Origin: a virus
Taxonomy: Duplodnaviria > Heunggongvirae > Uroviricota > Caudoviricetes
Strand: one strand, 5' to 3'
Virus record (IMG/VR): IMGVR_UViG_2541047595_000010
DNA: 7,207 nucleotides
In this document: piece by piece, positions 2,280 through 4,942 of the stretch
How the letters are laid out: the number at the start of each line of letters is the position of its first letter
How positions within the stretch are numbered: position 1 is the first letter of the stretch
The notes under the pieces: generated by a model
Databases searched by the model: none
Told to the model about the DNA's origin: nothing
The model's input: the letters and a program-made list of their open reading frames with translations, nothing else
Position numbers and translations under genes: made by a program

Positions 2280-2781
2280 AATTCCATCCAGCTTTTTGTT
2301 GGTATTGCTGTCGATACGCAAGTTTGAAAGCAATTGCTTTTTCTATAAGTTCGTCAGTTTCACGATCCACTACGGCAGGATCAGCAAAAAGCAGTCCGGA
2401 CTCCACCACATCGCCATATTCTTTGTTTAACCCGGCGATCATGCACGTGATGCTTTTTCCGTCAGTAATTTCACGATACAACCTGAAATCATTAATCCGG
2501 ATAGCCTCCATAATTGCAGGCACTAGCGCCGTGAACTTTTCACGCTTATCCCTGGTGTCGATAGCCTTCCAGCGTTCAAATATCTTCACTCGATTAACGC
2601 CAAGCGCTCGCTGATCAATCGCGCCACCTTCATATGTGACACGCTGAACATCGATGTTCGGGCGCTCTTTCAAAGCCCAGAATGCTTCAGTGATTAATAT
2701 CGTCGCCTGCTCCTGTGTCATTCCTGGTCGACATATCCAGGCATCCAGAGCCTCACGAGCCTGTTCAGGAGTGATTTTCAT
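2260..2781 (-). CDS. Hypothetical early regulator at the cII position (173 aa); possibly YdaT-like
   Basis: ATG at 2781..2779, overlapping the dicC stop by 17 nt and the downstream initiator start by about 20 nt (operon coupling). Family assignment is a guess from synteny, not from recognised motifs. Confidence 0.55.
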   Translation of the reverse strand: MKITPEQAREALDAWICRPGMTQEQATILITEAFWALKERPNIDVQRVTYEGGAIDQRALGVNRVKIFERWKAIDTRDKREKFTALVPAIMEAIRINDFRLYREITDGKSITCMIAGLNKEYGDVVESGLLFADPAVVDRETDELIEKAIAFKLAYRQQYQQKAGWNYEPSFC

Positions 2782-2995
2782 TGTTCAACCGCCCCGCCCG
2801 CTTCGTCTTACGATATTCATCATAAACTTTGGGATCATACTGAAGCTCCCCGCCAGATGCCTCCTGTAGACGCATCGCGCGACCTTCGGGAACTAAATCC
2901 CCTTTCCAGCTATAAAGCGAAGCCAAACGAATACCTGCTGCTTGTGCAAGTTTTGTTTTTGAACCGAAATACAAAAGAGCGTCAGTTTTAAGCAT
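2765..2995 (-). CDS. dicC: Cro-like transcriptional regulator DicC (76 aa)
   Basis: ATG at 2995..2993 with SD AAGGTG; divergent from dicA; length and position match my recollection of K-12 Qin DicC. Confidence 0.85.
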   Translation of the reverse strand: MLKTDALLYFGSKTKLAQAAGIRLASLYSWKGDLVPEGRAMRLQEASGGELQYDPKVYDEYRKTKRAGRLNNENHS

Positions 2996-3028: not shown

Positions 3029-3056
3029 AGATAGATGTTAACAAAAACATAGTCAA
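3028..3056 (-). promoter_or_regulatory. Candidate sigma70 promoter for the dicC operon: -35 TTGACT, 17-nt spacer, -10 TATCTT (minus-strand reading)
   Basis: Hexamers read from the sequence (plus-strand agtcaa at 3051-3056 and aagata at 3028-3033); positioned about 35-60 nt upstream of the dicC start. Confidence 0.45.
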
Positions 3057-3062
3057 TACGAT

Positions 3063-3076
3063 TTAGCATTAGCTAA
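3063..3076. promoter_or_regulatory. Operator-like palindrome TTAGCATTAGCTAA abutting the dicA start codon
   Basis: Half-sites TTAGC / GCTAA with a 4-nt spacer, ending 2 nt before the dicA ATG. The dicA promoter itself could not be placed confidently; dicA may be leaderless or nearly so. Confidence 0.4.
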
Positions 3077-3078
3077 CT

Positions 3079-3486
3079 ATGGAAACAAAAAATTTAACTA
3101 TCGGCGAACGCATCAGGTATCGTCGGAAAAACCTCAAACACACCCAAAGGTCTCTTGCTAAAGCCCTGAAAATCTCCCATGTGTCTGTATCACAATGGGA
3201 ACGGGGTGATAGTGAACCTACAGGGAAGAACCTTTTTGCCCTCAGCAAAGTATTGCAATGCTCACCAACATGGATTCTATTTGGCGATGAAGACAAGCAA
3301 CCAACACCACCTGTTGAGAAGCCAGTTGCCTTATCCCCCAAAGAACTAGAGCTCCTTGAGCTGTTTAATGCACTGCCAGAATCAGAACAGGATACCCAGC
3401 TCGCCGAAATGCGAGCTCGAGTAAAAAACTTCAATAAACTCTTTGAAGAATTACTAAAAGCCCGTCAGCGGACAAATAAAAGATAA
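3079..3486 (+). CDS. dicA: HTH (XRE/cI-type) repressor DicA (135 aa)
   Basis: N-terminal HTH (RSLAKALKISHVSVSQWERG); METKNLTIGERIRYRRKNLKHTQ... matches my recollection of DicA; exact length match; divergent arrangement with the cro-like dicC. Confidence 0.9.
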   Translation: METKNLTIGERIRYRRKNLKHTQRSLAKALKISHVSVSQWERGDSEPTGKNLFALSKVLQCSPTWILFGDEDKQPTPPVEKPVALSPKELELLELFNALPESEQDTQLAEMRARVKNFNKLFEELLKARQRTNKR

Positions 3487-3546: not shown

Positions 3547-3575
3547 TTGACCGATATGTTAGTCATGGCTAATCT
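3547..3575 (+). promoter_or_regulatory. Candidate repressible promoter of the ydfABC-dicF-dicB operon: -35 TTGACC (3547-3552), 17-nt spacer, -10 TAATCT (3570-3575), with operator TGTTAGTCATGGCTAA (3557-3572) across the spacer and -10
   Basis: Near-consensus hexamers with ideal spacing, about 80 nt upstream of ydfA; the embedded operator shares TGTTAGTCAT with the intergenic operator, consistent with DicA repression of the dicB operon (established for K-12). Confidence 0.5.
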
Positions 3576-3652: not shown

Positions 3653-3808
3653 ATGGATACTATCGATCTTGGCAACAACGAATCTCTGGTGTACGGCGTG
3701 TTTCCAAACCAGGACGGCACGTTCACCGCAATGACGTATACCAAAAGCAAAACGTTTAAAACCGAAAATGGTGCCCGTCGCTGGCTGGAAAGAAACTCAG
3801 GTGAGTGA
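3653..3808 (+). CDS. ydfA: Small prophage protein YdfA (51 aa)
   Basis: ATG at 3653 with SD GAGG 5 nt upstream; the ORF-track entry 3575..3808 is the same frame with a spurious 5' extension. Length and position match K-12 ydfA. Confidence 0.8.
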   Translation: MDTIDLGNNESLVYGVFPNQDGTFTAMTYTKSKTFKTENGARRWLERNSGE

Positions 3809-3809
3809 T

Positions 3810-3938
3810 ATGGATTTCGACACAATCATGGAAAAGGCTTACGAAGAATACTTCGAAGGCCTTGCCGAAGGCGAAGAAGCTCTCAGCTTCAGTGAGTTTA
3901 AACAGGCGCTTTCCAGTTCGGCAAAATCTAACGGCTGA
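3810..3938 (+). CDS. ydfB: Small acidic prophage protein YdfB (42 aa; MDFDTIMEKAYEEYFEGLAEGEEALSFSEFKQALSSSAKSNG)
   Basis: ATG at 3810, one nt after the ydfA stop, SD GGTGAG; translated by hand; absent from the ORF track because it is short. Length and position match K-12 ydfB. Confidence 0.75.
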   Translation: MDFDTIMEKAYEEYFEGLAEGEEALSFSEFKQALSSSAKSNG

Positions 3939-3967: not shown

Positions 3968-4186
3968 ATGCAGAAACGAGAACCCGTCATCATCGCGCCA
4001 GACTATACCGATGATGAACTTTATGAGTGGATGCGCCAGAAAATTAATGCAGCGCAGGATCTGAAATGGGCTAATGAAGCCAGGGCTAAGCAGGCTGAAA
4101 ATCTGTCCGCTCTGGAGCAGGATATCACCAATCTGGAAAAAGCAGCGGCATTAAGCATTGCCAGAATGATTACATACCCGCGTTAG
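3968..4186 (+). CDS. ydfC: Small prophage protein YdfC (72 aa), C-terminal coiled-coil-like
   Basis: ORF-track entry with SD GAGGAA; length and position match K-12 ydfC. Confidence 0.8.
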   Translation: MQKREPVIIAPDYTDDELYEWMRQKINAAQDLKWANEARAKQAENLSALEQDITNLEKAAALSIARMITYPR

Positions 4187-4526
4187 TAGCTAATCAACAA
4201 AGCTAAGGTTAGTAATTAAGGAGTTCTCCACGGGTGAGGTGGAGTGCGTGCGCCGGACACGGGTGCGCATCCGGAACTGACAGTTTACTGAAAGGATATT
4301 TCCCTGAAAAGTCAGACCATAACGCGAAAGCGCACGGCGAGGTAGCTGGTTCATAGATAGCCTGTCGTTAAATTTTCGTCGACCGTGCGCTTCCGGTTGT
4401 GGCAACCCGCGAAATGGCGCGGCGGTAAGTATGGCGGGGTTATTCCTTCCCCGTTGAGGACACCGGGTTGTCAGGTTGACCATACGCTTAAGTGACAACC
4501 CCGCTGCAACGCCCTCTGTTATCAAT

Positions 4527-4585
4527 TTTCTGGTGACGTTTGGCGGTATCAGTTTTACTCCGTGACTGCTCTGCCGCCCTTTTTA
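4527..4585 (+). ncRNA. dicF: DicF small RNA (about 53 nt plus U tail), processed from the dicB-operon transcript
   Basis: TTTCTGGTGACGTTTGGCGGTATCAGTTTTACTCCGTGACTGCTCTGCCGCCC followed by TTTTT matches my recollection of DicF; it sits between ydfC and dicB as in K-12. Confidence 0.7.
4543..4585 (+). terminator. Intrinsic terminator-like element at the DicF 3' end (GC stem GGCGG...CCGCC followed by TTTTT)
   Basis: GGCGG at 4543-4547 can pair with CCGCC at 4574-4578; T5 at 4580-4584. The loop is large, so termination is probably partial, consistent with dicB being expressed downstream. Confidence 0.45.
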
Positions 4586-4753
4586 AAGTGAATTTTGTGA
4601 TGTGGTGAATGCGGCTGAGCGCACGCGGAACAGTTAAAACCAAAAACAGTGTTATGGGTGGATTCTCTGTATCCGGCGTTAATTGTTAACTGGTTAACGT
4701 CACCTGGAGGCACCAGGCACTGCATCACAAAATTCATTGTTGAGGACGCGATA

Positions 4754-4942
4754 ATGAAAACGTTATTACCAAACGTTAATACGTCTGAAGGTTGTTTTGA
4801 AATTGGTGTCACTATCAGTAACCCAGTATTTACTGAAGATGCCATTAACAAGAGAAAACAAGAACGGGAGCTATTAAATAAAATATGCATTGTTTCAATG
4901 CTGGCTCGTTTACGTCTGATGCCAAAAGGATGTGCACAATGA
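4754..4942 (+). CDS. dicB: Cell-division inhibitor DicB (62 aa)
   Basis: ATG at 4754 with SD GAGGA 7 nt upstream; MKTLLPNVNTSEGCFEIGV... matches my recollection of DicB; the ORF-track entry 4649..4942 is the same frame with a spurious extension. Confidence 0.85.
   Translation: MKTLLPNVNTSEGCFEIGVTISNPVFTEDAINKRKQERELLNKICIVSMLARLRLMPKGCAQ

Follow-up and report, generated by a model that had tools for sequence, protein, structure and literature searches.

A conserved pseudoknotted RNA domain upstream of DicF in the untranslated ydfC-DicF gap of a Qin-like lambdoid phage

The small RNA (sRNA) DicF is among the oldest known bacterial sRNAs, and the dicBF operon is a model system for how cryptic prophages affect cell division, metabolism and the virulence of enterohaemorrhagic Escherichia coli (EHEC). 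In the virus record IMGVR_UViG_2541047595_000010, a stretch of 7,207 nucleotides (nt) that we call the window and to whose whole length all coordinates refer unless a locus is named, a long untranslated gap lies between ydfC and DicF, and the question that this locus raises is what such a gap contains. The window comes from a Qin-like lambdoid phage, of which it covers the immunity and early-left region, and Escherichia phage PhiR42_1 showed 100% identity to it across the whole gap in a BLAST search against phages. An initial annotation, made from the sequence alone, had suggested that the gap (4187-4526, about 340 nt) is longer than a DicF processing substrate needs to be and might hold an extra structured RNA element or a platform for processing by RNases III and E; an Rfam search, a covariation analysis across related prophages and the mapping of transcript ends were proposed as checks. 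The gap proved to be real, although its end was off by one, as it extends to 4527 and the DicF model starts at 4528. The suggestion was supported: both a long-range stem (P0) and a separate 124-nt domain are present there. We are highly confident of the structure of this domain and of its identity as the 5' body of long DicF, and P0 is very probably the RNase III site.

The 124-nt domain upstream of DicF

Copies of the domain were collected from BLAST hits and with two pattern scans, one over viral contigs, which gave more than 120 hits, and one over one genome per species. A covariance model, R1, was built from 32 aligned representatives. The species scan returned Escherichia, Shigella, Citrobacter, Serratia symbiotica, Trabulsiella, Erwinia tracheiphila and Izhakiella. 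In the window, the sole real match of R1 was at 4392-4515, with a score of 148.3 bits and an E-value of 3e-43. The proposed covariation analysis revealed that the structure is conserved across the related prophages. Among 68 distinct model-aligned copies, 96.2% of the domain cells were in standard pairs, compared with 31-54% in slid controls, and 13 pairs had changed on both sides, compared with 4.0 ± 1.4 in shuffled alignments (0 of 500 reached 13) and 1-5 in slid ones. An alignment made with MAFFT gave counts similar to those of the model-aligned set.

The helices were retained while their sequences changed. In particular, GUUGUCA/UGACAAC was replaced by GUAACCA/UGGUUAC in Izhakiella and, in the same helix, by GUUGCCA/UGGCAAC in phage P1, six different stem sequences were found in P4, and the pseudoknot GUAUGG/CCAUAC became GCAUGG/CCAUGC in P1-type phages. 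One pseudoknot pair was free of the retrieval pattern and was U-A in 63 copies, C-G in 3 copies (P1-type phages) and U-G in 2, while the other five were fixed by that pattern and thus uninformative; the isolated pseudoknot duplex amounts to about -5.9 kcal/mol. Only the BLAST hits, including those in phages P1 and P7, and three loci retrieved through a neighbouring protein gene are pattern-independent copies. Many of the pairs are G-U, where the opposite strand would have A-C mismatches; these pairs fit only the + strand, which indicates that the RNA is read from that strand.

The folding energy, in contrast, is weakly unusual and not strand-specific. Relative to shuffled sequences, the z-score of 4187-4580 was -2.3 on the + strand and -2.8 on the - strand, and values of -2.2 and -2.0 were obtained for 4187-4317 and for the 190-nt RNA, respectively. 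Thermodynamics alone are insufficient for the claim, and the decisive evidence for a structured RNA is comparative, namely the covariation and the G-U pairs that fit only the + strand.

The extra structured RNA element suggested at the outset was therefore found as a separate, strongly covarying domain without an Rfam match. The Rfam search of 4180-4600 at E <= 10 returned nothing that matches the domain, DicF being the only family in or near the gap, and the search of the whole window at E <= 1 returned only DicF and a sub-threshold STnc100 match downstream. The DicF model RF00039 matched 4528-4579 only, so that the gap (4187-4527) lies outside this 52-nt model.

As evident from the sequence, all three hairpins named in the initial annotation are present: CCGGA/TCCGG (4253-4257 with 4270-4274, enclosing a 12-nt loop), CGC-GAAA-GCG (4323-4332) and CCGCG-AAATGG-CGCGG (4407-4422). 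Their assignment to a structured element held only in part. The last is P2 of the conserved domain, whereas CCGGA/TCCGG lies in the mosaic 5' third of the gap and the GNRA-type GAAA hairpin sits inside the 5' strand of the conserved stem P0, with which it competes, and is probably not the form used. In an alignment of 62 distinct upstream variants, the first hairpin of the 5' third was swapped for unrelated hairpins or deleted; the CCGGA/UCCGG stem was invariant and its loop alone changed, and it therefore gives no covariation evidence. A CCUG..AAAAG.CAGG hairpin adjoining P0 recurs in Erwinia-type loci, and the Shine-Dalgarno-like AAGGAG at 4218-4223 is followed by no conserved open reading frame (ORF). 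The higher GC content noted earlier is real but modest (0.52-0.57 in the gap, about 0.43-0.53 in the ydf genes and 0.32-0.47 in dicB). The features of the region are collected in Table 1.

Table 1. Features of the window and of the related loci (numbers beginning with L denote fetched viral and genomic loci)
Feature	Position	Strand	Remarks
Domain	4392-4515	+	124 nt, five helices and pseudoknot, model R1
P1	4396-4403 / 4503-4510	+	
P2	4407-4411 / 4418-4422	+	CCGCG-AAATGG-CGCGG
P3	4423-4426 / 4462-4465	+	
P4	4435-4439 / 4449-4453	+	length-variable hairpin, C/U-rich loop
P5	4466-4473 / 4493-4500	+	19-nt loop
Pseudoknot	GUAUGG 4429-4434 / CCAUAC 4480-4485	+	P3-P4 internal loop with P5 loop
P0 5' strand	4317-4340	+	CCAUAAC-G-CG-A-AAGCGCACGG-CGA; includes CGC-GAAA-GCG
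P0 apical region	4341-4378	+	length and sequence vary between prophage types (17-121 nt)
P0 3' strand	4379-4402	+	UCG-A-CCGUGCGCUU-C-CG-GUUGUGG; last 7 nt are also the P1 5' strand
Linker	4511-4527	+	single-stranded; RNase E-dependent DicF 5' end at 4527/4528
DicF, intrinsic terminator and U tract	4528-4583	+	53 nt; with 4394-4527 forms 190-nt long DicF
DicF (model match)	4528-4579	+	Rfam RF00039, 76.7 bits
Gap	4187-4527		341 nt, non-coding, between ydfC and DicF
5' third of gap	4187-4316	+	mosaic of poorly conserved local hairpins
Hairpin CUCCAC/GUGGAG	4226-4244	+	
Hairpin CCGGA/UCCGG	4253-4274	+	
Weak hairpin CUGA-AAAG-UCAG	4304-4315	+	just 5' of P0
dicC	2765-2995	-	
dicA	3079-3486		
Candidate dicB promoter	3547-3575		TTGACC, 17-nt spacer, TAATCT; -10 hexamer TAATCT at 3570-3575
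ydfA	about 3653-3808		Pfam DUF1391
ydfB	ends at 3938		
ydfC	3968-4186		ORF including stop ends at 4186
dicB	4754-4942		
ydfD	after dicB		
recE-like gene	after ydfD		
Slot	about 3050-3450 of each locus		L224-L303 (e.g. L254, L239, L224, L259, L238, L286, L230)
C4 / isrK region	L003 40-228; L239 172-360; L254 275-463	-	Rfam

Stem P0, long DicF and the terminators

In the window, P0 is formed by CCAUAAC.CG.AAGCGCACGGCGA paired with UCG.CCGUGCGCUU.CG.GUUGUGG. It comprises 22 pairs with small bulges, which agrees with the roughly two turns (20 base pairs or more) of mostly continuous double-stranded RNA expected of an RNase III stem, and it was found in minimum free energy (MFE) folds. Among 31 variants, in which the 5' strands had been picked as the best duplex partners, 91.9% of the P0 cells were paired, compared with 29-44% in slid controls, and 9 pairs had changed on both sides, compared with 4.9 ± 1.4 in shuffles. 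The covariation is evident between the Qin type (GCGAAAGCGCACGG / CCGUGCGCUUCCGG) and other types (GAUGAGAGCAYU / AGUGCUCUCUUCG), the non-Qin P0 pairing ACACAACGAUGAGAGCAYU with AGUGCUCUCUUCGUUGUGG. In all lambdoid types the domain is preceded by a long-range duplex, and the GUUGUGG of helix P1 forms the end of its 3' strand, whereas phage P1 has no P0 and its transcript begins just before the domain. The PL leader of phage lambda, upstream of N, likewise contains a long hairpin sensitive to RNase III. A lambda-type nut site was not found. A boxA-like GUGCUCU comes after a boxB-like CCCUGAAAAG in the 5' to 3' direction, the reverse of the expected order, and this boxA-like sequence takes part in the pairing of P0.

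Two DicF species of 190 nt and 53 nt, both accumulating in stationary phase, have been reported (PMC10448788). The 190-nt species requires RNase III, as it is lost in an rnc mutant, and increases upon inactivation of RNase E (PMC10448788), and the 53-nt species requires RNase E (PMC10448788, PMC5069750). Primer extension placed the 5' end of the 190-nt species at +813/814 (PMC10448788); no internal promoter was found, and both species derive from the transcript started at dicBp (PMC10448788, PMC5069750, PMC9438474). When 190 nt were counted back from the 3' end of DicF (about 4580-4583), the 5' end made by RNase III would lie at about 4391-4396, within the 3' strand of P0. The +813/814 position gives the same place if transcription starts ~7 nt after TAATCT, at a start site that is predicted. 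The TTGACC/TAATCT sequence at 3547-3575 fits a dicB promoter and agrees with the published numbering, and it was not called by a consensus promoter scan. The processing platform proposed in the initial annotation thus corresponds to P0, which covaries and within which the published RNase III-dependent end is predicted to lie, and the processing itself was already known experimentally.

P0 and P1 compete for GUUGUGG. In the MFE fold of the precursor (4300-4515), P0 was formed and P1 was not, while the covariation fold forced on 4394-4583 reached -67.8 kcal/mol, compared with -69.6 kcal/mol for the MFE fold, with the pseudoknot not yet added. P1 also has a covarying pair of its own, C4403-G4503, which is C-G, U-A or U-G across the copies. 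Hence P1 does form at some point, and the simplest assumption is that it does so once P0 has been cleaved by RNase III.

We then found the same arrangement 3' of the domain in all 45 of the 45 distinct downstream variants examined, namely a single-stranded linker followed by an intrinsic terminator with a U run. The spacing between domain and terminator was about 10-75 nt, and the linkers and terminators were unrelated in sequence. The terminator types were that of DicF, GGCGGUACCAG..., GGCGGGUAUCC..., GCCCAUC-UUCG-GGUGGGC plus U6 in phage P1, and tandem duplicates in pPE4, and a second seed type was CAUUGCUGUGUGUAG. As every copy examined has domain, linker and terminator, the conserved unit consists of domain, seed and terminator, which is the layout of 190-nt long DicF. 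Our terminator scan misses the DicF terminator, whose loop exceeds 8 nt, and the Rfam structure was used instead.

The RNase III and RNase E processing of the dicBF transcript and long DicF itself have been described (Faubladier et al. 1990; Ragunathan et al. 2023, PMC10448788). The molecule is the same, as the 190-nt species corresponds to about 4394-4583 of the window and its 3' 53 nt are DicF. In those papers, the extra 137 nt are treated as precursor or as "a long untranslated region", with no fold, covariation or pseudoknot reported, and the domain is unreported in phage P1, in cdtI and Stx2c phages and in other genera with non-DicF seeds. Full-text searches of the DicF literature found the region called a precursor, a long untranslated region or a 3' untranslated region, and no description of a fold was found. 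The processing pathway is thus known; what appears to be new is the conserved domain together with its family, and the architecture of the slot described below. The 137 nt that have so far been regarded as precursor sequence form a specific, covarying, pseudoknotted fold, which bears on the expression of dicB past the DicF terminator, on long DicF in stationary phase and on the long untranslated leader.

Several minor observations concern these elements. In Erwinia-, Izhakiella- and L049-type loci, the apical insert of P0 contains two T-loop-like hairpins, CUGGUUCGAUUCCAG and GUCCGUUCAAUUCGGAC (L140 about 4440-4540; L141 about 2290-2380; L254 3120-3215); despite them, ARAGORN called no transfer RNA (tRNA) or transfer-messenger RNA in eight related loci. 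Natural deletion variants (L013 1632-1755, L056 5221-5344, L132 1454-1577) have lost the P0 3' strand and the P1 5' strand and kept the rest of the domain, and these deletions correspond to recombination between two CGCGAAA repeats (4323-4329 and 4408-4414 in the window); in the Shigella flexneri copy (L132) the terminator has decayed as well. In some loci, the terminator hairpin after the domain encloses AGGAG, a spacer of 7-9 nt, AUG or GUG, and UUC U(A/G)C CG (L140 about 4680-4760; L130, L138, L141, L049, L254 3370-3440), a frame that gives a short, seemingly conserved peptide, ..FFTQQ.RASPDDGLIT, which is readable in cdtI-type phages also. Judged from the sequence, this could be a leader peptide with its start buried in the terminator or simply conserved RNA.

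Distribution of the domain and the exchangeable slot

In a BLAST search against phages, the parts of the gap differed in distribution: about 4396-4518 recurs at 77-90% identity in cdtI and Stx2c phages, in phages P1 and P7 and in a phage labelled Actinobacillus, and the 5' part turned up in other combinations. The gap sequence was present in 4326 of 5426 complete E. coli genomes (about 80%), in up to 8 copies, and the domain occurred in about 500 phage-plasmid records, mostly of about 95 kb, at the identity level of phages P1 and P7. R1 could be used to annotate thousands of blank intergenic regions. There was one copy of the domain per locus (70 hits in 70 loci), and in 76 domain-bearing loci a repressor gene on the same strand was found at a distance of 0.36-3.0 kb upstream. 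The copy in phage P1 begins ~20 nt beyond the position at which the C1-controlled ban promoter (Pban) is annotated to start, overlaps a feature labelled only "dicF-like region" and is followed by a canonical terminator (L001 3119-3138) plus U6, with the annotated ban operon beyond. In cdtI- and pPE4-type phages, the domain stands at the beginning of the early-left operon, after the repressor gene. In cdtI and Stx2c phages, cI is followed by a terminator, then by a promoter match (11/12) and, after about 280 nt, by the domain, a terminator and genes. In pPE4, the phage labelled Actinobacillus (L004 2590-2770), the seed and terminator module is present in tandem after the domain. The flanks of pPE4 are nearly identical to E. 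coli prophage sequence, and its host label looks doubtful.

To survey relatives independently of the RNA, 80 viral loci were fetched via the gene of a neighbouring YfdQ-like protein and searched with R1. A first protein-anchored search had returned identical E. coli loci only, and placing the Erwinia protein first revealed the polymorphism of the slot. The domain was present in 3 of the 80 loci. In 23, P0 and the GUUGUGG...CCACAAC helix surrounded other domains. Ten of these 23 match an STnc100-like motif, one of which was checked in Rfam (L239 3228-3346, STnc100 34.4 bits); several of the 13 unclassified fillers also end in GGAGGCACC, and at least four further filler types, of 95-128 nt, are unrelated. 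All slot fillers begin with (U)(G)AAU followed by a GC-rich hairpin. The remaining 54 loci have no P0, and many of them retain seed and terminator, as does L230, an "empty site" joined at a CACAACG repeat. In phiSTEC1589-Stx1c, P0, linker and terminator are kept and exactly P2-P5 are absent. The domain is therefore one of several alternative structured RNAs in a leader slot bounded by a helix. A frame of RNase III stem, closing helix, seed and terminator that holds unrelated domains represents modularity at the RNA level in prophages.

STnc100 and PasD, prophage sRNAs of family RF02076, have been described as bound by Hfq and as located close to the gene for the Q antiterminator (Zhu, Shabalina and Storz 2026 preprint). 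Like the domain, they are structured prophage RNAs of about 110-200 nt with a G/U-rich strand facing a C/A-rich strand in the closing helix, after which come (U)(G)AAU and a first hairpin that is GC-rich. The STnc100-like match of L239 lies within GUUGUGG/CCACAAC, after P0 and before seed and terminator, as the domain does in L254. This sharing of one slot is an analogy of position, not homology. The internal helices, pseudoknot and conserved loops are unrelated, STnc100 and PasD lie near the Q gene whereas the domain follows an RNase III stem, and the STnc100 model had no match in 4180-4600 at E <= 10. Just after DicF, in the dicB leader (4577-4786), the window has a sub-threshold STnc100-like match (RF02076, 34.4 bits, compared with a gathering score of 47) closed by UGUGAUGUGG / CUGCAUCACA. 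Like matches were found in phage P1 before tciA (L001 4342-4461) and in pPE4 before kil (L004 2758-2942). These matches before dicB, tciA and kil indicate that the domain and an STnc100-like leader travel together ahead of genes for cell-division inhibitors.

Possible roles of the domain

The best overall explanation, which we put forward tentatively, is a modular transcribed RNA composed of P0, the domain and a seed and terminator module. Within it, a post-transcriptional role of the domain as a carrier or accessory seems possible. RNase III would cut P0 and thereby create the 5' end of 190-nt long DicF, and helix P1 would form only once P0 is cut or opened, reusing GUUGUGG. The domain would then be the accessory, exchangeable "body" of a phage Hfq-type sRNA and would act after transcription: helix P1 may bury the 5'-monophosphate left by RNase III and slow the 5'-end-dependent attack of RNase E, so that DicF is kept as a stable pro-form and builds up in stationary phase; this could account for the stable pool of the 190-nt species. 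A cut by RNase E between the domain and DicF would free 53-nt DicF and a separate RNA of ~134 nt, and a conserved host partner may be bound through the near-invariant unpaired nucleotides, as such loops suggest an additional specific partner. We propose a post-transcriptional role because helix P1 needs P0 to be opened, because the RNase III end in Qin-type prophages (a cut 0-5 nt before helix P1) and the transcription start in phage P1 converge on one 5' boundary, because RNase E cuts at the other boundary of the domain, and because the domain is optional and exchangeable among close relatives.

Several points weigh against this proposal and its supporting evidence. The choice of the P0 5' strands as best duplex partners inflates the percentage of paired cells, although not the column-wise compensatory changes, and the scan patterns fix 22-24 positions of the domain, which makes the invariance of its loops partly circular. 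In the published data on the Qin type, 53-nt DicF is not shown to depend on the RNase III step. The stability of the 134-nt piece and the standing of the 190-nt form as more than an intermediate are predictions of the model only. Furthermore, 124 nt, near-invariant loops and a pseudoknot are more than a stabilising cap would require, so the explanation is partly incomplete, and the seeds vary while the domain is conserved, which is the reverse of ordinary sRNA evolution. A wider reading, in which the domain is an unrecognised phage RNA class that binds a conserved host machine and occupies a general early-left "RNA cargo slot" of N-less lambdoid prophages and phage P1, is doubtful. If it held, RNA polymerase at the adjacent terminator, an RNase, Hfq or a ribosome component would be candidate partners, and early transcripts would carry interchangeable RNA modules, akin to the protein "morons" of late operons.

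Two alternatives, both of which we consider unlikely, assign the domain a different role. In the main one, the nascent domain would act in cis on RNA polymerase or the adjacent terminator, so that part of the early-left transcription continues into dicB, kil and recE; in phage P1, it would reach the tRNA genes, tciABC and ban. The EAR (eps-associated RNA) of Bacillus, an operon-internal, pseudoknotted RNA of about 120 nt, has been proposed to help RNA polymerase pass terminators in this manner; nothing in Rfam matched the domain, however, and the host clade is different. The put RNA of phage HK022, about 70 nt with two stem-loops and a triplex (PMC9378689), is likewise a structured phage RNA just after an early promoter (as the domain is in phage P1 and cdtI-type phages), with terminators next and N not detected. 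It suppresses downstream terminators in cis by binding to the zinc-binding domain of the RNA polymerase beta' subunit, and the indirect evidence for such an action of the domain is mixed. The position of the domain at the head of early operons, directly before the intrinsic terminator that would have to be passed, agrees with such read-through, as do the Pban, terminator and ban arrangement of phage P1, the order of promoter, domain and terminator in cdtI and Stx2c phages, the two tandem terminators of pPE4 and the upstream repressor in 76 loci. The near-invariant unpaired nucleotides and the pseudoknot would suit binding to a host machine, and terminated and read-through transcripts both exist in vivo (PMC10448788). 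No homologue of N or Nun was found in the fetched loci by tblastn with five queries (142 domain loci and 80 related loci), in a search that is not exhaustive, as N proteins are diverse; this absence was rejected as support for antitermination, since N was likewise not found in the 80 related loci, which mostly lack the domain, and the correlation is empty. Relatives without the domain or without P0 are also without detectable N and many keep seed and terminator, which indicates that the domain is not generally required, and unrelated domains can fill the slot. Moreover, put is ~70 nt and present in two copies per phage, one after PL and one after PR, whereas the domain has 124 nt with five helices and a pseudoknot and occurs as one copy, confined to the left operon, with no left/right pair; in 70 loci it was always located on the strand of the repressor gene and downstream of it; R1, with filters off, had a best E-value of 1.3 on HK022 22000-32000, which includes nun, putL and putR. 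The DicF terminator works right after the domain, the terminated species being the major products (PMC10448788), the distance to the terminator varies from about 10 to 75 nt, and P0 sequesters the P1 strand in the precursor, yet P1 forms, which points to a role after processing. The other alternative is an independent trans-acting RNA that pairs with host RNAs, for instance through the C/U-rich P4 loop or the CCACAAC strand, with the seeds as mere neighbours on the transcript. It agrees with excision at both borders (RNase III at about 4394, RNase E at 4527/4528), with a domain that is more conserved than the attached seeds and with the STnc100-like neighbours in the slot, as STnc100 and PasD are described as Hfq-bound sRNAs. 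The P4 loop changes in length and sequence and is always pyrimidine-rich with UCCU or CUCC, and in non-Qin variants the P1 3' strand and linker read CCACAACA(A/G)C (L003, L004, L113), which contains CACAACA, the published R1 target consensus of GcvB that is used by the anti-sRNA AgvB. Both the free domain RNA and its partner are hypothetical, however, and the CACAAC strand is needed for helix P1 regardless and is degenerate in the window (4503-4515, CUGCAACG; CUGCAAC). Identity with AgvB was rejected, as AgvB sits at the PR' moron site and the CACAACA motif alone is in common. An H-type second stem, between UCCUU of the P4 loop and the flank GAGGA, was found in E. coli types only and not in Erwinia, Serratia, Trabulsiella or P1 types. 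The sequence GUUGAGGAC 3' of P4 (4453-4461) is identical to a 9-mer at the ribosome-binding region of dicB (4739-4747), either of which the pyrimidine-rich P4 loop could pair with; mimicry of the dicB site was rejected, as the match is lost in variants with other flanks and is probably due to chance.

The other explanations, a passive spacer, a riboswitch and a coding gene, are less likely. Improbable in our judgement is a structured spacer whose G-rich RNA keeps Rho off the untranslated stretch and whose conservation reflects recent horizontal spread. The gap and the dicB leader are indeed untranslated over ~570 nt, the GC skew reaches +0.31 across 4150-4450, which is unfavourable to Rho loading, many copies are more than 95% identical, and the domain is dispensable in relatives. 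However, compensatory changes keep the helices across Escherichia, Citrobacter, Serratia, Erwinia, Trabulsiella, Izhakiella and P1-type phages at 77-90% identity, indels are limited to one hairpin loop, and the unpaired stretches are the most conserved, which is not required of a mere spacer. A ligand-sensing riboswitch, with the domain as aptamer and the terminator as expression platform, is very improbable. The multi-helix junction with conserved nucleotides, the pseudoknot, the single length-variable peripheral hairpin and the leader position before an intrinsic terminator resemble such an element, but by inspection of the variants no alternative pairing between domain and terminator is kept across the terminator types. 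Two candidate pairings, one between CUGUUAUC of the linker and GGUAUCAG, the other between the domain segment GGCGGUA and the 3' strand of the terminator, occur in the DicF type only; the latter, as an antiterminator, appears in the 190-nt MFE fold and was rejected, being absent in P1 and L049 types. Terminator sequence and spacing vary freely, no Rfam riboswitch matched, and the slot is exchangeable or empty in relatives. A decayed or unannotated protein gene is hardly credible. An antisense ORF of 111 amino acids (4190-4525) covers the entire gap, sense ORFs of 40 and 36 amino acids are present, and automatic annotation calls a hypothetical protein there in several phage records. In agreement with the initial annotation, which saw no plausible ORF, the Pfam search of the gap ORFs gave no match, and neither a reading frame kept across homologues nor similarity to a protein family was found for the gap. 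The GTG start of the 40-amino-acid ORF is GTC in relatives L022 and L143, homologous copies, including close relatives, differ by indels of 1 and 4 nt within one hairpin loop, which is incompatible with coding on either strand, and the substitutions compensate within RNA helices. RefSeq, additionally, carries no annotation at the gap across thousands of genomes.

The modular RNA that we favour also has a counterpart in the C4 RNAs of phages P1 and P7 and the CI RNA of phage P4, which are likewise cut from an early phage leader by host RNases. In the loci studied here, C4 and isrK lie elsewhere, upstream of the antirepressor gene, and no complementary target sites were found for the domain. Both C4 antisense RNA and isrK scored higher than the Rfam gathering cut-offs in these cdtI-type prophages, where they constitute a second, separate RNA-based control region.

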